In this document: positions 24,224-47,089 of the stretch, one piece after another
How positions within the stretch are numbered: the stretch's first letter is position 1
Layout: each line of letters starts with the position of its first letter
Source of the DNA: Ignavibacteriota bacterium
Lineage (GTDB): Bacteria > Bacteroidota > Ignavibacteria > UBA10030
Direction: 5' to 3'
Assembly: GCA_963701295.1 (NCBI GenBank)
Contig: OY969585.1
Span: forward strand, 3,579,694-3,643,693
Length of the DNA stretch: 64,000 nt
Notes under the pieces: generated by a model
What the model saw: the letters and a program-made list of their open reading frames with translations, nothing else
Database searches by the model: none
Told to the model about the DNA's origin: nothing
Position numbers and translations under genes: made by a program

Positions 24224-24297
24224 TGGGCCCTGCTGGACTCGAACCAGCGACCCGCAGATTATGAGTCTGCTGCTCTAACCAACTGAGCTAAGGGCCC
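24224..24297 (-). tRNA. tRNA-Ile2 (anticodon CAT, lysidine type); CCA not encoded
   Basis: Reverse complement GGGCCCTTAGCTCAGTTGGTTAGAGCAGCAGACTCATAATCTGCGGGTCGCTGGTTCGAGTCCAGCAGGGCCCA folds as a cloverleaf. Sequence is Ile2-like rather than Met-like. Confidence 0.92.
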
Positions 24298-24656: not shown

Positions 24657-25865
24657 ATGGAACAACAATGCAATGCTATAGGAAACACGGACTACAAAAA
24701 ATATATTTTCCCTATATGTCCAGTTAATGGAAATAGTATATGCAAGTTTATCAGTCACGGAGTGGCTCGTGGAGAGAAACTATCTCCTGAAAAAGTCAAA
24801 GAATTGGTAAAAAACCTTTTAATTCTCTTCCAGGAGGGTTTCGGTCCAGAGCATAATTTATGGAGCCTTCTTTTGACAGTAATTGTCATTAGCACATATT
24901 GCGCAGTGGAATTTATTAGCATACCACTTATATGGCTTCATTTACCAAAAGAGTTCAAAAGAGAATGGTTACTTCATCTCTTAGCGGCAGTCAGCAGTGA
25001 ACCATTTTTGGCAAGGAATTATTTTAGCTTTGATGAACTTAAAAAGATGATAAAAGGATCTTGGTATACTCCCGTGATATTCTTCGTTGATCCGAAGTCA
25101 TATGATAAAAGCGTCCAAAAATGCTATCTCGAAAATCCATCGGAAAGAACACAGTTTCTTTATGATAAATTCAATGATAAGGCAAGTTTATATTCATATC
25201 GTATCGTATTAGCAGATTATCCTCCGAATTCTAATTGTAGTCGACATACGCTTTGTTGTGATCTTCCTAGGATTCATAACTACCCCAATTGTGATAGCGA
25301 TCGTATTGAGGCGATTCGAACCGATTGCGATAAATTATATTCGACTCTGCAACAGCCATTGTGTTCGGCGATTGCTGAATTAGGAAAGAAAGCACCAGTA
25401 TACAGTCCATCTTTCAGCTTATATGCATTGTCTATAGTATTAAAGGAATTTGATGCGTTAGAAGAGTCTGAATTAAAGTCTGTTTGTGAATTACTCGAAA
25501 AACTCGAAATACGTTCAAAGAAAAACTATGGGTATGACGAAGACAAGGATGTCTTATGGTTGGTATGGGATTATTTAGCGGAACATTCAGCGGAAGAAAC
25601 CACTCCTGGAGATATTGTCGATGGATATATTATTCTCGAAAGGTTAACAAGTTTTATGGCATTCACGACACACGGACAGGTTCTGGTTGCCCCCCAGAGG
25701 ATCAGTGAAATTCTAAACCAATATAATTTAATACTGGATCGGAAACGACTTGATCTTGAGACACCTCCTGAGATAGAAAAACACGGCCATTCAATGCGGC
25801 GCATTCAACGAACTGGTGTTATTATCGATAAAGAAGCGTTGAGTGTGGCTATTTCTGGATACTAA
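24657..25865 (+). CDS. Hypothetical protein (402 aa)
   Basis: Long ORF with RBS GAGG; no motif recognised. Confidence 0.7.
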   Translation: MEQQCNAIGNTDYKKYIFPICPVNGNSICKFISHGVARGEKLSPEKVKELVKNLLILFQEGFGPEHNLWSLLLTVIVISTYCAVEFISIPLIWLHLPKEFKREWLLHLLAAVSSEPFLARNYFSFDELKKMIKGSWYTPVIFFVDPKSYDKSVQKCYLENPSERTQFLYDKFNDKASLYSYRIVLADYPPNSNCSRHTLCCDLPRIHNYPNCDSDRIEAIRTDCDKLYSTLQQPLCSAIAELGKKAPVYSPSFSLYALSIVLKEFDALEESELKSVCELLEKLEIRSKKNYGYDEDKDVLWLVWDYLAEHSAEETTPGDIVDGYIILERLTSFMAFTTHGQVLVAPQRISEILNQYNLILDRKRLDLETPPEIEKHGHSMRRIQRTGVIIDKEALSVAISGY

Positions 25866-25939
25866 ATCGTTATAGTCAAACCAAGACACGCTATTATCCT
25901 TCTCGTTAAAAGAAATTTATTAAATAAATTTGCCTAACT

Positions 25940-26593
25940 ATGACTTCATTCAATAAAGATCTTGCAGCATTAGGGCTGTCACCATTTCATCTCCAATGGC
26001 TTATATCTGAGTTCGCCAGATCAAATTCTGAATATTACGTAAGATATGGCGACAATCATCAATTTATCCACGCTATGGATATTAATACAGGTTCGTATCT
26101 CAAACTAAGTCAGGATAATTTATTAGATCATTTAATTGGGCGTAATCGGATTGCCGTTCCTCCAGGATTAATGATGAAATTTTTCTCTATCAATTTGTTA
26201 TGTCCAAAAGAGCAGGTGTCGGCATATCTCAAGATCATCATAGAGGGTTTTGGCATACCATTGATCGTAGTTACCAAGAATAGCAGAATTTATTCCTGCT
26301 GTTATTTCCTTCGAACACTTGAAGAGAAGGCAAATATCGTTAAAGCAATTGATTATAGCCTTGAGAAGATATTGAATCCTGAGGCTCTCCAATTCTTTAA
26401 GACATTCCCAGGATCAGCTAAATGGTTTGAATTACCCTTTGGAAGGGGAAGTTCTTTGATTAATCCGATCACATTGCAGCCGATGAAAATGAATAAACGA
26501 ACAATGATAGAATATTGTATTCGATATCAACAAAATACAAATCTAACCCTTGATAAATTATTGCATAACGTTGAAGGATTATCCTATGAGTAA
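25940..26593 (+). CDS. Hypothetical protein, possibly a degenerate AEP/primase-like replication protein
   Basis: DHLIGRNRIAV...FFSINL...FKTFP...ELPFG echoes AEP-primase layout, but the DxD and His catalytic residues are absent. Confidence 0.45.
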   Translation: MTSFNKDLAALGLSPFHLQWLISEFARSNSEYYVRYGDNHQFIHAMDINTGSYLKLSQDNLLDHLIGRNRIAVPPGLMMKFFSINLLCPKEQVSAYLKIIIEGFGIPLIVVTKNSRIYSCCYFLRTLEEKANIVKAIDYSLEKILNPEALQFFKTFPGSAKWFELPFGRGSSLINPITLQPMKMNKRTMIEYCIRYQQNTNLTLDKLLHNVEGLSYE

Positions 26594-27029
26594 GTTAATT
26601 CTACCATCACAGCTTACCGTTGAAGATGTGCGCTCTATTCTTGAAATTACAGAAAGATTGAAAGTTGATGGACAATTCGGTCGGGAAGGATTTCAATCTC
26701 AACAGTTTATTTTTACGTTACTAAACTTCTTTAAGAACAAAAAAACGGACGTATTGGTCATTCCAACTACTACGCTTACAAGATTTCCAGGTGCTTCTAA
26801 GAAAACGTCAAGGTTGAGGCGCACATTTTGTTTGGGTAGTGGAATAATGGTGATTGCCCGATCAGCAAGCATAGAAGAACAGCGAGCTACTACTTACAGA
26901 TTGAATTACCAATTCAAACAAGGCCAACTGGTAAAATACTTCATTGAAGGGTTATCTATACTCTATACAGGAAAGCAGTTACAAGAATTATACACAGAAT
27001 GGATATATAAAAAACACATTGCCAATTAA
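26586..27029 (+). CDS. Hypothetical protein, possibly winged-helix DNA-binding
   Basis: ATG overlaps the upstream stop; basic, with ATTYRLNY at the end of a wHTH-like segment. Confidence 0.5.
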   Translation: MSKLILPSQLTVEDVRSILEITERLKVDGQFGREGFQSQQFIFTLLNFFKNKKTDVLVIPTTTLTRFPGASKKTSRLRRTFCLGSGIMVIARSASIEEQRATTYRLNYQFKQGQLVKYFIEGLSILYTGKQLQELYTEWIYKKHIAN

Positions 27030-27266
27030 TCACATACAATCAGCGCGAACACATAATGACCACCACAATGTCTAAGGGGTGCGTCTATCCGGTAGGTTAT
27101 AAAAAAAAGGTAGAGTATTATATTAAGGAGAGAGCTTCAGATTAAGCTAATCAAGTGTAAGTCTCAAAGATCTAAAGAGTTTGACAGAGTTTCTGCATCA
27201 AGTCTGTGCATTCCTCAAACACTTCGGTAACATCTACGTTCTGTTTTTCCGTCAACCAATGAGATA

Positions 27267-27470
27267 TTACGACCTGAAGTTCCTTGTAAATAAATTCAAT
27301 GCCTCTTGTTTTGTCCTACGAATCGAAGCAAGCAAGAGTTGATCGTCAAACATAGATTCGCTCAGAGCAGATTCTACCGTCGTCTGAAGCAAATATCCTT
27401 TGTATTCCCTTATGACCATATCTTCGATATCATTATCTAAGCTATGCCGTTCCTTATTGATTTCGAACAT
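27267..27470 (-). CDS. Small hypothetical protein
   Basis: 67-aa ORF starting immediately after the upstream stop. Confidence 0.4.
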   Translation of the reverse strand: MFEINKERHSLDNDIEDMVIREYKGYLLQTTVESALSESMFDDQLLLASIRRTKQEALNLFTRNFRS

Positions 27471-27471
27471 T

Positions 27472-28065
27472 TTAATTCCAAGGTTTTCGTCTGATCTCCA
27501 ACCATTCGTTTTTTATGGATCTGTCGTTTTCAAGTTTAAGGATTATATTATCATAGACGTCTTTCATTTCTTTTCGCAAGAGGATAACACATACAGGGAA
27601 ATTATATGCCCCAGGTTGACCTCCTAAATATATCATCACACTTGCATCTGTTCTCCATCCCTGTGCATCCACAGGATAAATATAAGATTCGTCTGAAAAG
27701 AGACCACGACGTTTCTCAGTTAAATAATCTAATGGTTTTTGTTCCCGGTTCCCGAGGTCATATACAGCAATAAGACAAAGTGAGTTATCGATGATAATAC
27801 AAGAGTATGTAAGTTCATAATCACTTCTACTCACTACTGCATTAATGCGTTGAAATGTATGTTCAGCAAGTTTCCCGTTTTCCTTCGTTATTATACCATC
27901 GCGATATAGAACCTTCATACTTGAAATTGTATCAGTTGCGAGGACGATTTTTACCTAATTACTAGTCATATTCCATTTTAGATTATCATAACCCAATTCA
28001 TATTTCCCTTGTGAATACAAAATAGATGTAGATACCAAAATTAAAGTGATAAATAATTGTTTCAT
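27472..28065 (-). pseudogene. Exported hypothetical protein with one in-frame TAG
   Basis: AGGAGG-ATG at 28065 gives signal peptide MKQLFITLILVSTSILYSQ; TAG at 27955-27957; the same frame continues into ORF 27472-27918. Confidence 0.7.
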
Positions 28066-28131: not shown

Positions 28132-28941
28132 TCAATGTATTTTCAGTTGATTTAAGCGATTCTTGAGACAACAATGAACCCACGCTTTGTGTATGCTACC
28201 CCAACTCTTTGATGCTGTTCCTAATTGCCCCGCTTGACGTGGATGAACCAATGGTAATACTTCGACTGAATATCCATCAATATTCATTGGTATTGTTTTT
28301 CCATAAAGCTTTCCGTTTTCTGTTATCTGTGATAGGCTTTTAATTCGATGATAATATTTAAGAAAATCTTCTATCGGCTTGTCGCCAAGTAGAATTAGTA
28401 ATTTAGCTTTCGATTCTTTTAACTCTTTTACAATTTCGTTTCTTCGCTGTTCATCAGCGAACACTTTAGGGACAGGAGGAAAATATATTGGAGGAAGTAT
28501 TCCCTTTTTAACGAATGGATTGTATGTTCGTTCAATTGCAGCAGCTTGGCTGGGATTCATTCGGCTTTTTGGTAAAAGATCGCAGAGCCAAACATCATCC
28601 CTAGTATATCCAAGAGGAAATAAATATAGATCGTCAAGAGTTCTTCCAGACGGTCCGTTGAAACTTATTCCTGCCGATATTAAGTGACCACAAGAAGGAG
28701 GAATGTTTATCTTTCCAATAATTTCCGAGGCATTTTCTCCACGCCAGAATATTTCAGGTTCACTCTCCACTGCCAACGCTTTAATCTGTCCTTTCGGCGA
28801 ATGCCAAAATGCGTGAACAGCGCTTGCATAAACTCCAAGCACAAAAGCCTTCTTTACTTTTCTATCACGTTGTTGTAAAGTTTGAATCGGCTTGCCGAAT
28901 GGAAACGTTTCTGACAGTGTTGAGGTAGATGTGTTTGACAT
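28132..28941 (-). CDS. Uracil-DNA glycosylase superfamily protein (divergent)
   Basis: NGPSGRTLD, VWLCDL, LLILLGD and PLVHPRQ (UDG motif-B-like HP); strong RBS AAGGAGG. Confidence 0.72.
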   Translation of the reverse strand: MSNTSTSTLSETFPFGKPIQTLQQRDRKVKKAFVLGVYASAVHAFWHSPKGQIKALAVESEPEIFWRGENASEIIGKINIPPSCGHLISAGISFNGPSGRTLDDLYLFPLGYTRDDVWLCDLLPKSRMNPSQAAAIERTYNPFVKKGILPPIYFPPVPKVFADEQRRNEIVKELKESKAKLLILLGDKPIEDFLKYYHRIKSLSQITENGKLYGKTIPMNIDGYSVEVLPLVHPRQAGQLGTASKSWGSIHKAWVHCCLKNRLNQLKIH

Positions 28942-28977
28942 CAAGTGGTTCCTCCTTTATAATTTGTTTGAGAGCAT

Positions 28978-29126
28978 AAAAAAAAGGGCGCAATCCAAAT
29001 ACGTCCCCTTCTGAGGCACCGCTAAGCGCCCACCAGGAAAACGTAAAGGATGCGCCCTTTTAATTGGGCGCAGTCCTCGAATACGGTTCCTGGTTTAGAA
29101 AATTAGCGGTTTTCAGAAGGAACGCA
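28978..29126 (-). promoter_or_regulatory. Structured RNA leader with mutually exclusive long hairpin and terminator
   Basis: Nested pairings CCTTCTGA/TCAGAAGG, ACCGCTAA/TTAGCGGT, ACCAGGAA/TTCCTGGT and TGCGCCC/GGGCGCA; alternative AAAAGGGCGCATCC...GGATTGCGCCC followed by T8. Confidence 0.75.
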
Positions 29127-29438
29127 GTCGTAACTACGCGATATTTATTATTGCTATATTTTTATGTTTTAGTCGATGTTCTCCAAAATGATAATTTCTC
29201 TATACAATATAACACCAGACCCTACCGATCTCCAAATGGTGTCAGTAACGTATTGATTTATAATGACTTGTTCAAGCAGGTTTGGCTTTTTGTTGTTTGA
29301 AACTTATCTGCATACAAACGAAATCACAATATCTATTTCACCAGTATTTTTCTTACCACCCTGCACACATTCACATCAATCTTCTTTGAATCCAGATAGA
29401 CAAAGACTCCCATTTGGTTCAGTTTTCGTGACGTTTCC

Positions 29439-30377
29439 TTAGATCATATACCTCTCAGTAAGCCACATAGCATAAGACTTATTGAATTTTCCGAAGACTT
29501 CAATAACATCTTCTAAGTAGATCTGAGTGAGATAGGTTGGATCTTTCAGAAAGCTCTTCGTTAGATTGATTTGTTCATCCATAAATTTATTAGCCCGTGG
29601 GAAGATAATCATCGGCTTCCACATTTCGGTATCTATAGTCTTTAGATGGCACAAAAGTATATAGCGCATTATCTGATACTGCTCTCCATACAGAAAGGGA
29701 CAATCTTCATAATGACGCTCGAACTTCTCAAGGTTATAAGGGCTATTACTGCTTCGCAGTATTGGATAATAAAGTGTGCCATAAGCTTTTTCAAGTGGAC
29801 ATCTTAACGTGGCCATCGGTTTATTACATTCACTATCACGTTTGGTTGATCCACAAGGAGCATCAGTATGTTCTGTAAATTTCATCTCAACTAAGTATTT
29901 GTATTTGCCACAGTCTATCAATAAATCGTGGTTGGATCGCTTTCCTCTTTGTTGAAGAGAATTCAATTTATCAATCCACTCGAATTGAAATTCTTCTTGA
30001 TGGATATCTGGATTGCCCAGTAACACTTGAACCAAACCTACTTCACATCGCTTGGCAAGAGAAAAGAGGTTCAGAGCCAGTAACTGAGAACTTTTAGGGT
30101 TGTTACGAGAGTGGAATTGGATATTGAGAGACTCGACTTCAGACTGAATATCTGGATGAATTATTTCTTGCTGCCGATCTTTTGCTACTATATATGAATG
30201 ACTTTCGTCAGTAGGGATTTGTAGGTATTTCCAAAGAGAAGAATAATGGTTTTCAAGATTTTCTATCCAAGTCAGTGTATCCAACTCAAAGAATCCTTTC
30301 ACGCAACCATACAAACATCGACTGAATACGATTCCTCTGAAGTGACTAACATCCGTAATCTTTAGCTCTTATTCCAT
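29439..30377 (-). CDS. PD-(D/E)XK nuclease, PGN_0703-like putative restriction endonuclease; TAA at codon 3 of the coupled start
   Basis: SSQLLALNLF, FEW, NHDLLI, LVEMKFTE, YQIMR and Cys residues. ATG 30377 overlaps the upstream TAA but reads ATG GAA TAA; the ORF track starts at TTG 30314. Confidence 0.7.
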
Positions 30378-31045
30378 TATCCGCAGGAATTTCTTCCTTT
30401 TGTGTTTAAATGGATTTCACAAGAATTTGGTTTAATTATTTTGCATTGAGATGGTGAAACACCCCCGAGGCACTTCAAAAAGCTTTTATATGTTTTTCTT
30501 CTGTTTTTATCAATGACTGGTGGAGGGTAAGGAAGTGCATCTATATAAGTGTTAGCAAGACCTAATCGTTTGCATTTGCGAATGCCACCATAGATACGAG
30601 TAAGTGCATCAGATTCTTCTGGTGAAAGTGGAGTCGCTCTGGACCGAAACTTTGACGCAAATTTTCCCATCGAAGTTTTACGTTCAACATTCGAAATTAT
30701 ATTCTTAATAAAAGGAAAATCTGTGTTGCCCTTGTTATCTATCAATAAAGGCGCTGTTAAGTATCTAAAGGGCATCGATATCGGTTTCCATTTAACTTCA
30801 ACTATTCGATTATGAAGGATTGGATTTAATCGTGGAGTAAGATATACAAGCTTAAACCCATTTTGACCTCCTTGAGCAAACGCAAACCTGGCCCCATAAA
30901 GTTTCTCATATGAATTTGAACTCATAAGGTTACGTTCGTGACATCTCGTAAGGCCAAAACTTCCATATTCCCAAAAGGGATCTGTTCTCATTTCATCTGA
31001 TTCAGATTTAGGACGACGTAAAAGGACAACAAACACACGTTCCAT
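30377..31045 (-). CDS. Hypothetical protein, Nmad2-like partner of Nmad3
   Basis: DPFWEYGSFGLTRCH...FAFAQGG...LVYLTP loosely parallels the Nmad2 NPF...CTLxxCK...LIY pattern; operonic with Nmad3. Confidence 0.5.
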   Translation of the reverse strand: MERVFVVLLRRPKSESDEMRTDPFWEYGSFGLTRCHERNLMSSNSYEKLYGARFAFAQGGQNGFKLVYLTPRLNPILHNRIVEVKWKPISMPFRYLTAPLLIDNKGNTDFPFIKNIISNVERKTSMGKFASKFRSRATPLSPEESDALTRIYGGIRKCKRLGLANTYIDALPYPPPVIDKNRRKTYKSFLKCLGGVSPSQCKIIKPNSCEIHLNTKGRNSCG

Positions 31046-31051
31046 CTTTAA

Positions 31052-31792
31052 TCAATTATTCCTTTCAATCACTTCATAGTTTTGTTTCTCCAGCCAACTC
31101 AAAAATTGTTTTGGGTTTGAAAAATGTGGGGGTATAGCACTTCTTTGAATATATCCATCTTTAACTGAAAGCCCACCCCATTTCTTAAGCAAATCCTTTG
31201 TTACGCGATATGCTCGATTTCGATATTCTCCCACTAAAATGCTAGATTTTAATCTTCCCGATATCCCTCTTTGAGCACGAACTACGATATCCTGCATCCC
31301 TATTTCAATTTTCCTCGTATGAGCATTCTCAATATACAAATTTCGATGAATGTTTTTTACACTCACCACTTGCTCGACAAAATAAATTCCAACAAGTCCA
31401 TACCATAATGGATATTTAAATTCCTCAACAGGCCTAAGACCTGCGTAGAAAACTATAAAATCATCTTTCTGCAGCTTTGCAATACCCGATCCTCTGCGAT
31501 TTCCATTGTCACCATATGTGAGAAAAGAAAAATCTGGATCGAGATGAATAGCTTGACCATTTAATCTTTTCTCAGGACAATGTATGTCATCAAATGATAT
31601 TAAATGACTTTTGCAAAATACTTTTAATGGTTCTTTGAATTCTGTATAAGTTTTTCTCATACCTTTTCGAAAAGCGAACCGTGGATTTTCCGGAATTGGG
31701 AAATACACAAACTCTCCTGATTGTTTAGATACTGGAGCATTCCAGCCACCAAATGACCGATCGATTCCAATTCTGACCAAGATTGCATTCAT
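31052..31792 (-). CDS. Nucleotide modification-associated domain 3 (Nmad3) protein
   Basis: VRIGIDRSFGG, FVYFPIPE, HLDPDF, TYGD, DFIVFYAGL, ENAH; RBS GAGGG before ATG 31792. Confidence 0.8.
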   Translation of the reverse strand: MNAILVRIGIDRSFGGWNAPVSKQSGEFVYFPIPENPRFAFRKGMRKTYTEFKEPLKVFCKSHLISFDDIHCPEKRLNGQAIHLDPDFSFLTYGDNGNRRGSGIAKLQKDDFIVFYAGLRPVEEFKYPLWYGLVGIYFVEQVVSVKNIHRNLYIENAHTRKIEIGMQDIVVRAQRGISGRLKSSILVGEYRNRAYRVTKDLLKKWGGLSVKDGYIQRSAIPPHFSNPKQFLSWLEKQNYEVIERNN

Positions 31793-31930: not shown

Positions 31931-33850
31931 TCAACTCAAGTGCGTAGAATCGTGAATGTCATAATTTGGATCACTTTCCAGTTTAGTGAAATATAACTCA
32001 TTGATGATTTTCGAGCGGACTAAAATATCGTCTATGTTTCTTTCTGGAAAATATTGTAGATAAAACATAACATACTGAAGAACCGAATCAACAATCTCGT
32101 TTAATCGCATCCCATAATGCACATTGTATTCGTGATCATATTCGGCGCTATGAACGATTTTATTTCTGAATCTATAGATAGTAGTCAACTCAAATTTCAA
32201 TCTCTCTTTTTCCTTTAAAAGCAGTTTTAAGAGTGCCTTTTTGTTTTGACTAAGCATTAGAATCTCATTTGCTCTTTCAACAACATACCGGTCACGCACA
32301 TACTTTGTTATCTCAGGAATATCTTTACAAAACATCTTATAGCTCCAATGATATACACCTATATTATAGTCTAAACCATATTTTGAGGCTAACTTTTCGT
32401 CATCTATTTTTAAATACCCGTTAGCGACCTGACTTTGTAGTAGTGCGAATAAATTGCCCTGCAATTCATCAAAATATTTATTTAAACAAATTGCGGGAAT
32501 ATATTTCAGAATTGCATCTATTACTTTATCTCCCTTCCTTCGGACCAAATATTCTAAGGCAATCCACAAACTCATAAAATGTTCTTCAAAATGTTTCGCC
32601 TCTTTCGCTTTATGAACCCAATGCAAAGCCTGATAGATCCTATTGTTTGATAATACTTCAGACTTTAATCCATAATTTTTACCTTGCTGCTCAACGAATT
32701 CAATATCATCCTTGTGGAGAGCGACTATATCAACGCCCTCATAATAAGATTTGTATTTTGGCAATCCTTCCCAAAGATCAGGCATTTGATGGATTGCCTG
32801 ATCCGAAGTGTTTAATAGTGCCCAAGATTTTGATACATCAATTTTTCCAGAATTAGTGTTTGAATAATTGTATCGATATTTCAGGAAGTCAGTAGATTTA
32901 TAGATCTCACGTTTTGCCTCGGAGAGAATATTAAAACAGTCGATACCCTCGCCAACAAATGACGCTCGTAAAAAGGGTTTATTGCGCTCTTCTTTCTCTA
33001 AAGATGTAAACACCCAAATCACCTTATCATCTTCTGATTTTCCTTCTATATCAAGAGGCGGATGAAAATCCACGTCACCAATTCTTATTTGTTCATTTTG
33101 CTTTGCAGATGCACCCAGGATTAAAAACATTGCTTTTGCCTTAAATCTTGGTGCATTGTAGAGACGCAATAGATAATCGAATCTTGCTGCTACCGGTGTG
33201 TTTTCTTCTATGTCATAATCAAGATTTGTCCCCCAATATTTTCCTTTGAAAACCGGCAGACTCTGATTGTTTGATATCCGTCCCTTGTTAAAAAGGTTGT
33301 TTGGAATGTTGATAATAGTGTCAATAGTGAATCCTTTTTCGACTAACTCAACAATCATAAGTTGACTAAGAATTTTCAATTCTTGTATTGACGGGTTCGG
33401 ACTTTGAAAAACTATATTTCTGAGTTTAACAAATATTTCTGTAAAGTATTTTTCTTCGCTTAGTTTGTCTAGTAAGTATTTTGAGAGTAGAATAATCTCA
33501 GTGTGGTTTGTCTCGTTTTTTGTTGTTGTATTTATTGATTTGACCAGTTGACCAAGTTCAGTGTTGAACATTTTCATTGCAATTGAATCGAAAGATTTTG
33601 CATAATTGAGTTTAAGATTCAATTGCTCTTTGATACCAACAATAGATTTTTCCTTGGATGTTGAAAAACAGACATCTTCAATGATCTGTTTCAGAACTAT
33701 CCTAAGACTTATCGGTTCAAAGCGGTAGAAATAATGATTTCGTTCATCTTCCCAAAGATTTGACCATACTTTTGACCACAATTTGAGATTGCTAGGAGCC
33801 TCGACTGTTTTGTAGCCATCCCAGATGTATGGAGAATTTCTTGACCACAT
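31931..33850 (-). CDS. HEPN-domain protein (ApeA-like), predicted RNase effector
   Basis: ALHW...FMSLWIALEYL helix and RxxxxH motif (YRFRNKIVHSA) near the C-terminus. Confidence 0.75.
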   Translation of the reverse strand: MWSRNSPYIWDGYKTVEAPSNLKLWSKVWSNLWEDERNHYFYRFEPISLRIVLKQIIEDVCFSTSKEKSIVGIKEQLNLKLNYAKSFDSIAMKMFNTELGQLVKSINTTTKNETNHTEIILLSKYLLDKLSEEKYFTEIFVKLRNIVFQSPNPSIQELKILSQLMIVELVEKGFTIDTIINIPNNLFNKGRISNNQSLPVFKGKYWGTNLDYDIEENTPVAARFDYLLRLYNAPRFKAKAMFLILGASAKQNEQIRIGDVDFHPPLDIEGKSEDDKVIWVFTSLEKEERNKPFLRASFVGEGIDCFNILSEAKREIYKSTDFLKYRYNYSNTNSGKIDVSKSWALLNTSDQAIHQMPDLWEGLPKYKSYYEGVDIVALHKDDIEFVEQQGKNYGLKSEVLSNNRIYQALHWVHKAKEAKHFEEHFMSLWIALEYLVRRKGDKVIDAILKYIPAICLNKYFDELQGNLFALLQSQVANGYLKIDDEKLASKYGLDYNIGVYHWSYKMFCKDIPEITKYVRDRYVVERANEILMLSQNKKALLKLLLKEKERLKFELTTIYRFRNKIVHSAEYDHEYNVHYGMRLNEIVDSVLQYVMFYLQYFPERNIDDILVRSKIINELYFTKLESDPNYDIHDSTHLS

Positions 33851-33949: not shown

Positions 33950-34636
33950 TTATGCAATCGGAATCACCTTAACAAGTATATTGGAATAATCAATTAAATA
34001 TATCTCTTTAAACCTTTTCTGCTGATTTGTTACTCTATCCAACTGAACCACTAGTCTGCTTATTAATTTACTGTAATAATCTTTTATGGTTTTGTTAAAT
34101 CTTGATTCGGTAACGACCAATAAAACATCGATATTAATGTAATTAATGTTTTTCGTTTTCTTTTCAATTGCTTTGATTATTTGGTCACTTTCTTCGTGCA
34201 AAGCACTATCCTCAGACCGCAGTCCTCTTTTTTGCGATATAGAACCATCTTTATTTCTTTCAAAACGACCGACACCTAGAGAGAATCCTTCTTTTATAAG
34301 CTTTTCTTTTTGAAGTGCGGAATTATAACTAAACGATGCCGTGGTAATCTGAATTGTTTCTATGCAATTATCGTTGCAATCCACTATTTCAGCGTCTATT
34401 TTTCTTCCGTTTTCGCATAGAAATATTAAATAGTTATTGCCAGGATATTTTAAGGAAGAATACAAAGATAAGGGGTAATACTCATCCCAAAAATCTTTAA
34501 AAAATCTATCTTTCCCTTTCTTTAAGACAAAACTTTCATACTCTTCTCTTGGCACTGAATTAAATATTTCATCGCAAAACAACTTCGCTTCGTTAATATC
34601 CCTTTTTACTCTTAAAATATTTGCTGAATATTTCAT
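33950..34636 (-). CDS. Hypothetical protein, restriction-endonuclease-fold-like
   Basis: IDAEIV...IQITTA (D...QxT variant), AIEKKTK...Y...LLVV and FKEIYLID patterns. Confidence 0.5.
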   Translation of the reverse strand: MKYSANILRVKRDINEAKLFCDEIFNSVPREEYESFVLKKGKDRFFKDFWDEYYPLSLYSSLKYPGNNYLIFLCENGRKIDAEIVDCNDNCIETIQITTASFSYNSALQKEKLIKEGFSLGVGRFERNKDGSISQKRGLRSEDSALHEESDQIIKAIEKKTKNINYINIDVLLVVTESRFNKTIKDYYSKLISRLVVQLDRVTNQQKRFKEIYLIDYSNILVKVIPIA

Positions 34637-34667: not shown

Positions 34668-35495
34668 TCACGACGAAGAAACGTTTTTCGTGAATTTATC
34701 TAAAAGATCATTGTAATCTCGATGTTTGAGCAATGTCTCTACAAGCTCTATCTTTCCTTGACTCTTTCTGTATGATGTAATTAGCTCTCTCCAAGAATCA
34801 TCGTTATACGCTCTGAAAAATGGATTTGCTAGTTCTATCTGTTGGGTCAAAGAACTCATTTCCAACAAATGTGGTTTTACGAAATCTGGAAATGTGCGCC
34901 GCTTCAGATTATCCGTGAAGAACTCAAACGATCTTATATGAATTGAATGTTCATCAGAAAAATGATTTCTTCTCTCTAACCATTGGTGACTGTTTTTTCT
35001 TGTTCCTATAATAACCGTAAATGTTAATCTTTCAGATGGTATAATGCCACGATTATAAAATGGAAATATTTTATGGAATTCATTTCTGTTCTCTTTGATC
35101 CAATCTCTCCAATTGTCAATCTGTTGAACAGCAGCCATAAGTCTCGCAGAAGGATTCCCCCTTTTGGTATATGGAGGCGTTCCAGGTGTTTCAATCTCTA
35201 TGAATTCATACTGAATGCCTGCGCTTAGGCGATCATAGGTTTTAACAAAATCAACAATAAAATCTGAACCAAGTCTGAGCTTGGAGATGACTATACTTTC
35301 ATCATCAAATAACCGCGCTAAGAAGAATCCGGCGTGCTTTGAAAGGAAGCTATGATACACTTCCTCTTTAGCGTTTTCACTCAAGAGTCTGTTCCATTCG
35401 TTTTCAAGTTTTATTACAATGTCCCTTTTTTCACGATGTAGTAGTGACCAAGAATAATAATTATTGTCGGTAGAGCAAGGATTTTTCAATTTCAC
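34668..35495 (-). CDS. Shedu (SduA/DUF4263) anti-phage nuclease domain protein
   Basis: EEVYHSFL, KLRLGSDFIVDFV, FIEIETP, AAVQQIDNW, VIIGTR, IRSFE; GTG start overlaps the RM gene stop. Confidence 0.82.
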   Translation of the reverse strand: MKLKNPCSTDNNYYSWSLLHREKRDIVIKLENEWNRLLSENAKEEVYHSFLSKHAGFFLARLFDDESIVISKLRLGSDFIVDFVKTYDRLSAGIQYEFIEIETPGTPPYTKRGNPSARLMAAVQQIDNWRDWIKENRNEFHKIFPFYNRGIIPSERLTFTVIIGTRKNSHQWLERRNHFSDEHSIHIRSFEFFTDNLKRRTFPDFVKPHLLEMSSLTQQIELANPFFRAYNDDSWRELITSYRKSQGKIELVETLLKHRDYNDLLDKFTKNVSSS

Positions 35496-38383
35496 TATTC
35501 CTCCACAATCTTTATCTCTTCTTCCGTCAAGTCGTATAGCTCATACACACGTTCATCGATTTGACGGTTTAAGGTTTCGCATTGCATTTCGAGACGATTT
35601 GCTTCTGCTTCGGTTTTGGCATTCGATAATTTCTCTTTTGCATCCAACATCTGTTCGACAAATCTCACGATGTGATCGTGGCGAGACTTGTCTTGTGAAT
35701 CTTTAAAGTTGATTGTGCGGATGGGAAGCAGTTTAAGATCACCCACTGAAAGCCGCGGGAAGTTATCCTTCACAATTTTATTAGACACTAAAGGATATAG
35801 AAAAGAAAGTAATTTTGAGTTCAAGACACCAAGTAAATATTTTATCGAATAGCTCTCACCATTGATACAAATAATATTTAGAATTGTTTTGTAATTACAA
35901 TAAGTTTCTTCTACATAAGTTGCACATATTTTATAATCTCCCTTTCCAGTTATTTCTCTGATTAGGATTCGTGGACCAGACAACCATTCCATTGTTCTAT
36001 AATCGTGCAACCAAGGACCATATTTAATCCACTCGCGCTTTTGCCATTGTAGAGTATATCTACCCACATCGCTCCCGGATAATTCCATCAAATATTCCTT
36101 ACTCAGCCTTTTGGTTGAATGGAATATACGATCTTCAATTTGTTGCTTTGTATGTTTGCTACTATTATAAGCTTGAGTTCCTAATGATGCTCTTGCTATT
36201 TGGCCTAATGGCTTTGCTTTTGAGGATATTGACTGAAGTAAAGATTCAATTTTACCCGCTATTCGAGTCTCAAATCGAAACAAGGGATTTATTTCCCATA
36301 TTTTCTGATTAAATAAAACAGGTTCAACAGAATTCAACATATCAATAGCAAATTCTTTGGGAAACGTCCATACAAATACTGTGTTATCGTTTTTATTGTT
36401 GATACTTTTTCTTTTTAATATTGTAACAGAAGTATCAACATTGGCTGCTTCAAAGACCTTATGATTAAAGATTAATAGCTTGCCTAATGCAGTATTCGCA
36501 AGAACGTATTCTCTGAGTTTATCTGTAAATTGAAGGGTATACCAAGTATTCGGTGTGATATAACCCAAATATCCATTTTCCTTAAGTAATGATATAGCCT
36601 TTTCGATGAAGAGATGGAATAGATCTGCCTTATATTTAAAACTTGAATACTTCTTTTCAAGATATTCAATAGCACTGTCCTCAAAATCATCCTTTAGAAT
36701 AATCCGATACGGCGGATTTCCTACCACTGAATCAAATCCTCCACGCTTCATCACAGCAGAGAACGCATCTTCAAAATTCATCGGCTTCAACTTGTTTTCA
36801 TCTACATCAGCAAAGAGTTGACCATCAATAATATCACGAGCTATAAGCGAATTACCGTTGATGATGTTATTCCGCAAGTCCGGCAAGATCGTTTCCTTAA
36901 ACATCCCAAATTGGTGCGCATCGTGCATCGTTACATCTTCCAACAATTTGAGATAAAGTGAAAGCTGAGTTACTTCCGTTGCCTGAAAGTCGATATCAAC
37001 TCCATACACATTGTTCAGCAGTATCTCTTTTTTCTTCTTTAAGGTCAGGTGCAGTTTGCCATCCCGTTCAAAGACATCTGCTTCCTTCTGCTTTTCGGGA
37101 TGCGCAACATAATAGCGGGTATGATACTCTAAAAGCTGATTATACACTTCAATCAAGAAAGATCCGCTTCCGCAGGCAATATCGGCAAATGTCATCTCTG
37201 TAATTTCTTTAGGAGTTTTCCCCTCTATGAGTTTCCCTACCGTTTCACTTACGATATACCGAACAATATACTCCGGTGTATAATACACACCGCCGGCTTT
37301 ACGCACTTCCGGTTTCTCTTCTACCTTCACACGCTTGTCTGTGGCGTGCACTACCTTGCCAAGAAATCTTTCGTAGATACTGCCAAGAATAGAAATAGGA
37401 ATTTGATCGAAATTGTAAGGTGAATGAGGATCCGATAATTCACGGCAGATATCGCCAAACTCTTCATCATCCGGTGGAACAAACTCTTTTTCATCCAGCA
37501 CTTTATGCGGTTTGAAAACGAGTCCGTTATACTTTGGATCCAACTGTTTACAAAGTTCAAGAAATCCTTTCCACGCAGACTTCTTTGAGGCCAGTTGAAT
37601 AATTACAGGTTCTTCTATCTGCTTATCTTCAAGAAAACGGATAAAGACTAACCGATCAATAATCCGCTGGACAGCTTCTGTGAGTTCTTCGCTTTGGAGA
37701 TTAGGATTGGATTTCTTAAATGCTTTCGCTAACACTTCTCGGTATTTATCTAACTCTTCTAAGAACGCCTCATCGACCGGTTGATAGCCGCCTTTGATAG
37801 CTTTTCCTCTTAGCTTTGGCAGTTCGGCTACACGTTTTTCAATAGAACCACTTGCTACTGCTTCGCGTGAAAAGAGCCAATAGATACGAGAGAACTTTTC
37901 CTCATTTGCATAATCGCTGTAATGGAAGTATTCGATCTTATGAATCATCACATTTTTGATGTTTGGCTTAAAGCGGCAATCAAGGATGTGGAATTCTTCG
38001 AAGTCCGTAAGTATTGCGATGGGAGTATTGGCATTCCATCCATAGCGAATGGTTTGATAGTAATCATCAGGATTGGCGAGGTTGCGAGATGGTTTTTTCG
38101 CTTCGACAAAGAATTTTGGATCGCGGAAATTCGGTGCAAGAAAGAATGCATAATCGGAACGGCGCTGTGAACCTGCCATATGCACTTTGTTCTCGATATG
38201 AACCTCCTGCTGATATGGATTCATTTGAACATTGTGTGTTACGTCCCATCCGAGGGCAGTAAAAAATTTATCAATAAAGTCCTGCCGTATCTGGCTTTCC
38301 TGATACCCAGGAGAGAGATAGGCTGATTCTTGCGCTTTGAAGTTTGCAACGAGTTGCTTTATAGTATCGAATGCTTTATTCAT
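35495..38383 (-). CDS. Type IIG restriction-modification enzyme (Eco57I/TaqI-like fused REase-N6 adenine MTase-TRD)
   Basis: N-terminal SDY...VEAKKP nuclease; GVYYTPEYIV; DIACGSGSFL (SAM binding); GNPPY; TaqI_C-like tail. Confidence 0.92.
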   Translation of the reverse strand: MNKAFDTIKQLVANFKAQESAYLSPGYQESQIRQDFIDKFFTALGWDVTHNVQMNPYQQEVHIENKVHMAGSQRRSDYAFFLAPNFRDPKFFVEAKKPSRNLANPDDYYQTIRYGWNANTPIAILTDFEEFHILDCRFKPNIKNVMIHKIEYFHYSDYANEEKFSRIYWLFSREAVASGSIEKRVAELPKLRGKAIKGGYQPVDEAFLEELDKYREVLAKAFKKSNPNLQSEELTEAVQRIIDRLVFIRFLEDKQIEEPVIIQLASKKSAWKGFLELCKQLDPKYNGLVFKPHKVLDEKEFVPPDDEEFGDICRELSDPHSPYNFDQIPISILGSIYERFLGKVVHATDKRVKVEEKPEVRKAGGVYYTPEYIVRYIVSETVGKLIEGKTPKEITEMTFADIACGSGSFLIEVYNQLLEYHTRYYVAHPEKQKEADVFERDGKLHLTLKKKKEILLNNVYGVDIDFQATEVTQLSLYLKLLEDVTMHDAHQFGMFKETILPDLRNNIINGNSLIARDIIDGQLFADVDENKLKPMNFEDAFSAVMKRGGFDSVVGNPPYRIILKDDFEDSAIEYLEKKYSSFKYKADLFHLFIEKAISLLKENGYLGYITPNTWYTLQFTDKLREYVLANTALGKLLIFNHKVFEAANVDTSVTILKRKSINNKNDNTVFVWTFPKEFAIDMLNSVEPVLFNQKIWEINPLFRFETRIAGKIESLLQSISSKAKPLGQIARASLGTQAYNSSKHTKQQIEDRIFHSTKRLSKEYLMELSGSDVGRYTLQWQKREWIKYGPWLHDYRTMEWLSGPRILIREITGKGDYKICATYVEETYCNYKTILNIICINGESYSIKYLLGVLNSKLLSFLYPLVSNKIVKDNFPRLSVGDLKLLPIRTINFKDSQDKSRHDHIVRFVEQMLDAKEKLSNAKTEAEANRLEMQCETLNRQIDERVYELYDLTEEEIKIVEE

Positions 38384-45696: not shown

Positions 45697-45942
45697 ATGA
45701 AAACGCAGAAGGAAGTAATGAATATTGATGAAACCGCCGACTTTATAGGCGTCTCCCCAAGCAAGATACGTCAATTAGTCCGCGAAGGACGAATTCCTCA
45801 TATTAGGCTTGACGGAAGAATTTTATTTTTAACTGTTGAAATAATCGATTGGTTGAAAAGCAAACAGGTTGCTCCCGTAACAGAAAATATATCTGATAAA
45901 TTAACTGATGATGTGTTCAAGCGATTGAGGAAGGCCATCTAA
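45697..45942 (+). CDS. Excisionase-type HTH DNA-binding protein
   Basis: MNIDETADFIGVS...LVREGRIPHIRLDGRILF...WL (HTH_17 pattern); stop overlaps the int start. Confidence 0.88.
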   Translation: MKTQKEVMNIDETADFIGVSPSKIRQLVREGRIPHIRLDGRILFLTVEIIDWLKSKQVAPVTENISDKLTDDVFKRLRKAI

Positions 45943-47045
45943 TGGCAGCGCTCCGAAAACGTGGAAGAATATGGTATGTTGATTGTTATTATGAAGGCCG
46001 GCGGAGGCTTGTCTCAACTAAAACATCAAACTACGAAACAGCGAAAAAGATAAGAGATCGTATTGAAATAGAAATCGCACTTGGCATATTCCTGCCGGAT
46101 AAAGCCCGGGCAATCAAAATTACTTTTCAGGAATTCTTTGACGAGTATTTTAAAATTGTATCCAACCAAAAGGCAAAAAACACAATACGGAATGAGAAGC
46201 AATATGCAAGACAAGCGGTAGAGATAGTCGGGAACATCTTTCTAAAAGACATAACGACAAGGAAAATGGATGAATGGAAGGCAAGAATAATTAATGAAAC
46301 AAGCCCGACAACTTTCAATATTCGATATCGATTTCTCCACGCCGCTTTCAATCGTGCGATACGTTGGGGATATCTTGATAAAAATCCCTTAGCAAACGTC
46401 ACTAAGGTAAAAGTTGATGAACATAGACTGTATTTGACAAAAGAAGAAACTATAAAAGTATTCAATGCAATTGATAAGCGCCTCCTCCGGCTGCAATCGC
46501 GTAAACGCCATACCAAGATGCCCTTATTCAAAAAGTGTGCTGTGTTCTTGCTCAACACAGGGTTACGAATCGGTGAAGCTTGTCAGTTACAAATGAGAGA
46601 TGTCGACCTTAGCAACAAAGTCATACACGTCGAGAAAACAAAGACCTACCTTTCTCGAATTGTTCCGCTTACGCCTGATGCATTAGAGATCCTTAGTAGT
46701 TTAGATGACAGTCTATTCCAGAATCTAACTGAAGGATATGTAAGCCACGAATTCGGGCGCTCCTTAACAGAGGCTGGCCTTGTCGGATTTAAACAGCATT
46801 CTTTGCGTCACACATTTGCAACACGTTTAGTCGAATGTGGCGTTGATCTTTTCGTTATTAGTAAAATACTCGGGCATACCAGTATGAAGACAACTATGAT
46901 ATATGCGAAAGCCGGAGTAAATACTCTTCGGAGCGCAATAGGTCTGCTTGATGTAGGATTGCATAGTATACAAAATAGTGACACTAAAGATGGAAAGGAG
47001 GAAAATACCGTTATCAGACAAGGAGATTTAGAGACTGGTAAGTAG
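45942..47045 (+). CDS. int: Tyrosine recombinase/integrase
   Basis: TGLRIGEA, KTK, HSLRHTFAT, LGH, TTMIY catalytic set; N-terminal arm-binding segment; adjacent to att. Confidence 0.95.
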   Translation: MAALRKRGRIWYVDCYYEGRRRLVSTKTSNYETAKKIRDRIEIEIALGIFLPDKARAIKITFQEFFDEYFKIVSNQKAKNTIRNEKQYARQAVEIVGNIFLKDITTRKMDEWKARIINETSPTTFNIRYRFLHAAFNRAIRWGYLDKNPLANVTKVKVDEHRLYLTKEETIKVFNAIDKRLLRLQSRKRHTKMPLFKKCAVFLLNTGLRIGEACQLQMRDVDLSNKVIHVEKTKTYLSRIVPLTPDALEILSSLDDSLFQNLTEGYVSHEFGRSLTEAGLVGFKQHSLRHTFATRLVECGVDLFVISKILGHTSMKTTMIYAKAGVNTLRSAIGLLDVGLHSIQNSDTKDGKEENTVIRQGDLETGK

Positions 47046-47046
47046 C

Positions 47047-47089
47047 TTATGAGTCTGCTGCTCTAACCAACTGAGCTAAGGGCCCGTGT
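47047..47089. repeat. att direct repeat (right copy) = orphan 5' half of tRNA-Ile2
   Basis: Identical 43 bp to 24259-24301; covers the tRNA 5' end through the anticodon loop only. Confidence 0.95.

Follow-up and report, generated by a model that had tools for sequence, protein, structure and literature searches.

Four minus-strand open reading frames (ORFs; 31052–31792, 30377–31045, 29439–30314 and 28132–28944) follow one another in a 64,000-nucleotide stretch of contig OY969585.1 (assembly GCA_963701295.1, positions 3,579,694 to 3,643,693) from an Ignavibacteriota bacterium, hereinafter the window, and raise the question of whether they constitute one defence system. A sequence-only reading located the four ORFs correctly and proposed that they do: Nmad3, an Nmad2-like protein, a PGN_0703-like nuclease and a uracil-DNA glycosylase (UDG)-like enzyme would read, excise and cleave modified or uracil-containing phage DNA. 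Our analysis indicates that the locus very likely holds three units rather than one system. Overall, we favour with moderate confidence three separately inherited units lying side by side in an element integrated at a tRNA-Met gene, the first two genes being a module and the other two stand-alone genes. The four-gene arrangement most likely reflects the fortuitous assembly of an array whose cargo varies.

The conserved unit is the middle gene together with Nmad3. The stop codon of Nmad3 (31052) and the ATG of the middle gene (31045) are separated by 6 bp, as the sequence-only reading had it. Neighbourhoods of the middle gene were inspected in the best 80 of 137 genome loci (hereinafter partner loci). 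Of the 80, 63 contain an Nmad3-family sequence, upstream in 42, downstream in 10, in the same ORF in 10 and convergent in 1, and Pfam supported the Nmad3 identity in all 10 cases checked. Nine of the 10 same-ORF cases are full-length fusions, which fall into at least two sequence groups (no tree was built). Partner and Nmad3 distances are correlated, with a Spearman coefficient of 0.40 that is not corrected for kinship (n = 58; maximum of 500 shuffles 0.11). A Pfam scan of 145 chosen ORFs neighbouring the partner loci revealed no recurrent third gene. The pair resembles Nmad2–Nmad3 pairs (PF18753 and PF18754), in which Nmad3 is likewise tightly coupled to one partner of ~200 aa; it differs in that the window partner fails the Nmad2 profile, is mostly found downstream of Nmad3 and frequently forms a fusion with it. 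Among the 17 partner loci that lack Nmad3, 8 carry a methyltransferase and 3 end less than 400 bp downstream. In eight Melainabacteria-labelled and related loci (L025, L026, L037, L038, L040, L047, L059 and L073), the partner is located between a ~510-aa methyltransferase and GNAT, the latter in seven of the eight; P0333 is a partner–GNAT fusion.

The remaining two genes hardly ever accompany the pair in the loci sampled. The UDG profile matches in none of the 80 partner loci and the nuclease profile in one, 6.7 kb away; lack of co-occurrence as a set is the outcome that the sequence-only reading itself had named as refuting its reader/excision/cleavage system. In whole-genome searches of 50 of the 80 partner genomes, the UDG family was found in 1, away from the pair, and the nuclease family (REase-ARP) in 6, in 1 of them within a locus. 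Three metagenome loci of close nuclease relatives (1.2–4.3 kb) contain no Nmad3, partner or UDG ORF. Across the order, 251 genomes yielded 20 REase-ARP loci; the pair lies within 1.5 kb only in the window, and the UDG gene is present only in the window and in G001, a genome of the same genus.

That all four genes nevertheless work together, with the pair as reader of a modified base, the glycosylase as the enzyme that removes this base and the nuclease as the cutter, is very unlikely. Their co-orientation and plausible chemistry are in its favour, and a figure legend in the available part of the DefensePredictor report (PMC13092281, Fig. 6F) names NMAD and UDG domains among predicted systems. 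Several observations weigh against separate units. In genome G317, one of six other UDG genomes, a gene of the UDG family lies immediately upstream of an Nmad3 gene; by chance, ~0.08 genomes would hold both (6 and 4 in 300), versus the 1 observed. In addition, the UDG gene adjoins a PDDEXK_13/REase-ARP nuclease in both copies of the element (window and G001), and the partner–nuclease order is kept in near-identical strains (contig of sequencing run X4). The two UDG-adjacent nucleases are distant relatives and lie on opposite sides of the gene. The simplest explanation of the G317 adjacency and the UDG–nuclease contacts would be defence-island clustering. Besides the co-occurrence counts, the distribution of the middle gene (1 of 251 order genomes, the window's own) and the position of the UDG gene behind a 497-bp leader with a terminator-type hairpin argue against a four-gene system.

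The third gene (29439–30302, minus strand) encodes a PD-(D/E)XK nuclease of the REase-ARP/PDDEXK_13 type, and its naming as PGN_0703-like was correct. Specifically, it matches PF22558 REase-ARP (E = 1.9e-14, 54.4 bits) and PF20796 PDDEXK_13 (E = 7.7e-8, 32.5 bits), both above the cut-off of 27, and residues D130, E143 and K145 are invariant in 9 sequences. A search of PDB sequences with the nuclease profile gave no significant match. The TAATG at the partner/nuclease junction, which had been taken for a translational overlap, is present, but its ATG opens M-E-stop; the real start is 74–92 bp from the middle gene, at GTG 30302 or TTG 30284. The six full-length homologues are 282–296 aa long; the closest three (85–95%) start at GTG 30302, and the other three near TTG 30284, 9 nt upstream of which is an AAAGGA. 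The sequencing runs (X1, X2 and X4) consist of contigs only, with less than one tenth of the words, and barely cover the UDG coding region. A contig of X4 spans 30100–30407 with 5 differences, 4 of them listed and none of those in the stop, while contig ends in X1 and X2 have the same stop after a short insertion. A nuclease broken by the codon-3 stop, which was thought to need repair before cloning, was rejected in view of the downstream starts in relatives and of the stop, which has no listed change in X4. The gene is intact, 74–92 bp from the middle gene.

The proximity of the nuclease to the pair suggests another explanation, namely that the pair recruits any nuclease at hand and that, with a newly captured REase-ARP, it makes up a type IV-like restriction system of three genes, confined to this locus. 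An independent strain has the same order, and modification-dependent enzymes in which a PUA domain is fused to a nuclease are known (PMC6765204, available part). However, descent alone would give a common order in strains 85–98% identical, nucleases occur only sporadically beside other pairs, and the long partner-containing proteins scanned have no nuclease domain. Nor is there the consistent linkage of a type IV reader with its nuclease, the nuclease family being found in 1 of 80 loci at 6.7 kb. We consider capture quite unlikely. The nuclease is likely a stand-alone defence gene, and would act alone.

The first gene of the pair (31052–31792, minus strand) encodes a 246-aa protein from ATG 31792, which the ORF finder extends to TTG 31918. 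The Nmad3 call is borne out, PF18754 matching residues 45–223 of the long ORF with 67.3 bits against a cut-off of 27 (E = 2.2e-18). The protein can be aligned from M1 with 39 relatives, and H83, D85 and H158 are invariant polar residues. It contains a G-D-hydrophobic-FY stretch that we take to be reminiscent of EVE. Profile–profile comparison by hhalign gave 0.8% to the partner and 6.8% to Nmad2. A search of PDB sequences with the Nmad3 profile gave no significant match. In the ESM Atlas, Nmad3 matches unnamed clusters at 0.86–0.88 and an Nmad2-bearing cluster at 0.77, which serve as leads only.

The middle gene (30377–31045, minus strand) encodes a 222-aa protein without a match in Pfam, NCBIfam, PADLOC or PHROGs, and its family comprises 358 clusters at 50% identity. 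It had been called Nmad2-like. This identification was rejected: PF18753 misses the window protein and four homologues at E ≤ 1, and the profile–profile probability (hhalign) is 0.16% against a shallow Nmad2 alignment of 6 sequences. PF18753 has no match in the window's own genome, and one query of viral contigs found no Nmad2 relative. The partner itself occurs in 4 viral contigs; plasmids gave no partner match. Its structural model (predicted local distance difference test score, pLDDT, 89.9) points, with moderate support, to the PUA superfamily by fold. Specifically, the top 18 rows of a VIA comparison are all of the YTH/EVE/ASCH type including McrB-N (Z 7.9 to 4.7), the best with a root-mean-square deviation (rmsd) of 3.2 over 126 aligned residues, and VcaM4I appears at Z 6.0. 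Two results weigh against this assignment: the best Z, 7.9, falls short of the tool's own level for a clear match, and in Foldseek nothing reached E ≤ 0.001, although the rows listed are of the YTH/EVE type, with a best E of 0.015. The ESM Atlas returned only unrelated matches for the partner, at 0.83 or below. D22, E26, T33, C35, H36 and E83 are invariant polar residues in the family.

There is about an even chance that the pair is a modified-base defence module. Nmad3 and its partner may form one complex, a self-contained two-subunit module, because nine fusions join them; the complex would recognize a chemically modified base in invading nucleic acid. It may also carry its own activity and need no separate effector, since usually no effector lies alongside and both proteins have invariant polar residues. 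The pair is found in contexts ranging from restriction-modification (RM), GmrSD, CBASS-like and prophage genes through to housekeeping operons. Counting against a defence role, many pairs lie amid housekeeping genes, a defence or mobile neighbour being found in ~20 of 80 loci (proteins scanned), and a methyltransferase lies upstream of the partner in 8 of 80 loci, 7 of them also with GNAT downstream and none with Nmad3, which suggests modification or turnover rather than defence. The pair could accordingly be a non-defensive enzyme, resembling YqfB and carried on mobile DNA, that erases or salvages modified nucleosides or RNA. ASCH-fold proteins such as the amidohydrolase YqfB can indeed be hydrolases (PMC6972931, available part), and the methyltransferase–partner–GNAT operons (7 of 80 loci), the P0333 fusion and the many housekeeping contexts fit such a role. 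On the other side are the patchy spread over many phyla, the 4 viral contigs, the RM, CBASS-like and GmrSD islands, and the fact that Nmad2, which occupies the partner slot beside Nmad3 in canonical pairs of G156 and G220, belongs to a defence operon, DS-4. We regard the eraser or salvage role as rather unlikely. The modified-base theme of the sequence-only reading thus survives in part: the genes are cargo of a mobile island, and the predicted folds are YTH/EVE/ASCH-like for the middle protein and UDG for the last one, but the four very likely do not make a single system.

DS-4 (working name NTTI) is a validated five-gene operon comprising thymidylate synthase, kinase, hypermodification protein, TIR protein and Nmad2, according to the available part of PMC13092281. 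It resembles the window locus as a defence operon with an Nmad-family gene, although none of its components was detected among the window's four genes. The sequence-only reading had described Nmad2 and Nmad3 as lacking a demonstrated function; Nmad2 is already a component of this validated system. For Nmad3, our literature search found no function, and it found no study of the pair, the nuclease or the glycosylase. PF18754 is absent from the 10 supplementary files of the DS-4 paper. In two phylum genomes (L131 and L132), Nmad2 lies behind a TIR-like gene with hypermodification- or thymidylate-synthase-like genes upstream, an arrangement that is DS-4-like as read from sequence. The pair may also be compared with modification-dependent systems that have a PUA-type reader (VcaM4I-type EVE nucleases, McrB N-domains and Metis/PUA-Cal-HAD). 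Those systems carry a fused or fixed effector, whereas the pair, with its predicted PUA-type reader, has none in the loci examined.

The last gene (28132–28941, minus strand; 269 aa) is predicted to encode a protein with a UDG fold, in agreement with its placement in the UDG superfamily by the sequence-only reading. PF03167 scores 26.7 bits against a cut-off of 24.3. The model (pLDDT 95.2) aligns with UdgX and family-4 UDG in VIA (Z 11.6, rmsd 3.4), and Foldseek gave 33 matches at E ≤ 0.001, those listed being UdgX or family 4. The fold matches listed include no Brig chain, an absence that rules nothing out. Foldseek against viral models gave no match at E ≤ 0.001, and a search of PDB sequences with the UDG profile gave no significant match. 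Hallmarks of family-4 UDGs are four Fe-S cysteines and a GE(A/G)PG motif; the alignment of the window family instead has LGVYASA, one conserved Cys and HPRQ. Because of these differing motifs and the failure of the family-4 profile (TIGR00758, 12.5 bits against a cut-off of 125.3), uracil as substrate is unsupported.

The UDG-like family comprises 2937 proteins at E ≤ 1e-3, and occurs in 7 of 301 phylum genomes, in 8 viral contigs and in 4 Variovorax plasmid records. Six other bacterial UDG loci adjoin type I/III RM, McrBC-like, HNH or toxin–antitoxin-like ORFs, partly as read from sequence. In G001, the UDG gene (76%) is preceded by another UDG-like gene and followed by a distantly related PDDEXK_13 nuclease. 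Two genomes (L096:10499-11218 and L120:7199-7858) have, near a member of the UDG family, a UDG-like protein of a different kind with weak PF03167, and in six related prophage-like contigs (L107-L112) the UDG-like gene occupies a variable accessory slot. The available part of PMC11078745 describes Brig1 as a UDG-superfamily enzyme in defence islands, with 42 homologues, that removes alpha-glucosyl-hydroxymethylcytosine. The best match of the Brig1 model is a family-4 UDG, as for the window protein. The window family is likened to Brig1 and Brig3 (10.64898/2026.02.25.707755, available part) by fold and description, and is far larger. The window gene is likely a stand-alone defence gene, like the nuclease; by analogy with Brig1, its enzyme may excise a non-canonical base from phage DNA.

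The UDG-like gene was said to belong to the cluster. It is co-oriented, but lies ~497 bp downstream of the nuclease behind a structured leader (28945–29438, minus strand). The leader is 92% identical to that of G001 over 456 nt, and is better conserved than the UDG gene region (82%). It has a folding z of −5.5 and no match in Rfam. In both genomes its last 170 nt can adopt two exclusive folds (−63.5 versus −50.9 kcal/mol), and one form contains an 84-nt hairpin followed by a U run (29061-28978), ending ~35 nt before the start. On the opposite strand, a sigma-70-type promoter (28935–28963, plus strand) overlaps the UDG start, with a predicted RNA of ~95 nt. The promoter matches the consensus at 12 of 12 positions in the window; in G001, where its offset is identical, 10 of 12 positions match. 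A promoter scan found 12 sites where 13.8 are expected, the antisense site being the only perfect match. Such a leader is missing from thirteen other UDG loci (z −2.1 to 1.4; starts approximate for L103-L105), one of which has a 10/12 antisense site. A 16-base leader pattern found in 30 viral stretches nowhere extends beyond 24 bases, so these matches are attributed to chance. The leader part 29228-29298 also turns up in several metagenome contigs, where its flanks differ, and may therefore be a promoter or a site common to related elements.

The arrangement in the two genomes suggests that the UDG-like gene is regulated by antisense-RNA attenuation; in this element, the glycosylase would be held down by antisense-driven premature termination. 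pT181 and pIP501 are known cases of antisense-RNA-driven transcription attenuation. RnaG/icsA, as described in the available part of PMC2879508, likewise combines a leader that can fold either as a terminator or as an anti-terminator with a promoter facing it on the antisense strand. The window case differs in being purely predicted, confined to two genomes and located upstream of a glycosylase-like gene. What is new here is the predicted two-state leader RNA that is conserved, together with the antisense promoter, in two genomes. A bolder picture, which we hold to be unlikely, combines the predictions: two putative PUA-type folds would form a heterodimer that itself destroys or strips the modified base without an effector, and the glycosylases would be a widespread new antiviral family, whose gene would here be silenced by an unstable antisense RNA and induced once infection or transfer halts the synthesis of this RNA.

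All four genes lie in an integrative element of 22.8 kb (24256–47085) bounded by a 42-bp direct repeat that corresponds to the 5' half of tRNA-Met (24256-24297 and 47044-47085) and encoding a tyrosine integrase (45942-47045). It also contains RadC, DUF932, Gam-like and PDDEXK_1 genes. G001 has the same element backbone (80% over 6.1 kb), with the UDG gene and the leader and without the pair. Elements that integrate into tRNA genes mostly duplicate the 3' end of the tRNA; here the duplicated portion is the 5' half up to the anticodon loop, and G001 has the same core. Consistent with the sequence-only reading, the four genes are at the distal end of a defence array, which Pfam and PADLOC (library of 2023) upheld: a type IIG RM enzyme (35495-38383, minus strand; REase_MTase_IIG, E = 1.4e-185), an SduA-type nuclease (34668-35495, minus strand; SduA, E = 3.4e-16) and FRG/PDC-S15. 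PADLOC named these upstream genes (type IIG RM, SduA and PDC-S15) and no family at E ≤ 0.1 for any of the four, so the cluster is not a named system in that library. Two array genes (31931-33850, 639 aa; 33950-34636, 228 aa) have no significant family match in four libraries, and a contig from run X1 connects the 3' end of the 639-aa gene with Nmad3. Beside the tRNA, in 24657-27918, four element genes (402, 217, 159 and 148 aa) are without Pfam, PADLOC or NCBIfam match.

Further known work is found in PMC7641849, PMC11846954, 10.1101/2025.11.05.686725 and 10.1101/2025.10.29.685425 (available parts). For cloning, the targets now become the pair by itself and, separately, the glycosylase in versions that include or omit its leader; no repair is needed. 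As a small, often fused two-gene unit, the pair makes the function of Nmad3 directly testable, and the modified-base-reader fold gains, by prediction, one more family in the unnamed partner. The glycosylase family numbers thousands of sequences, frequently located in defence islands and prophages, and is a promising candidate for a substrate class additional to those of the Brig and Dag enzymes.

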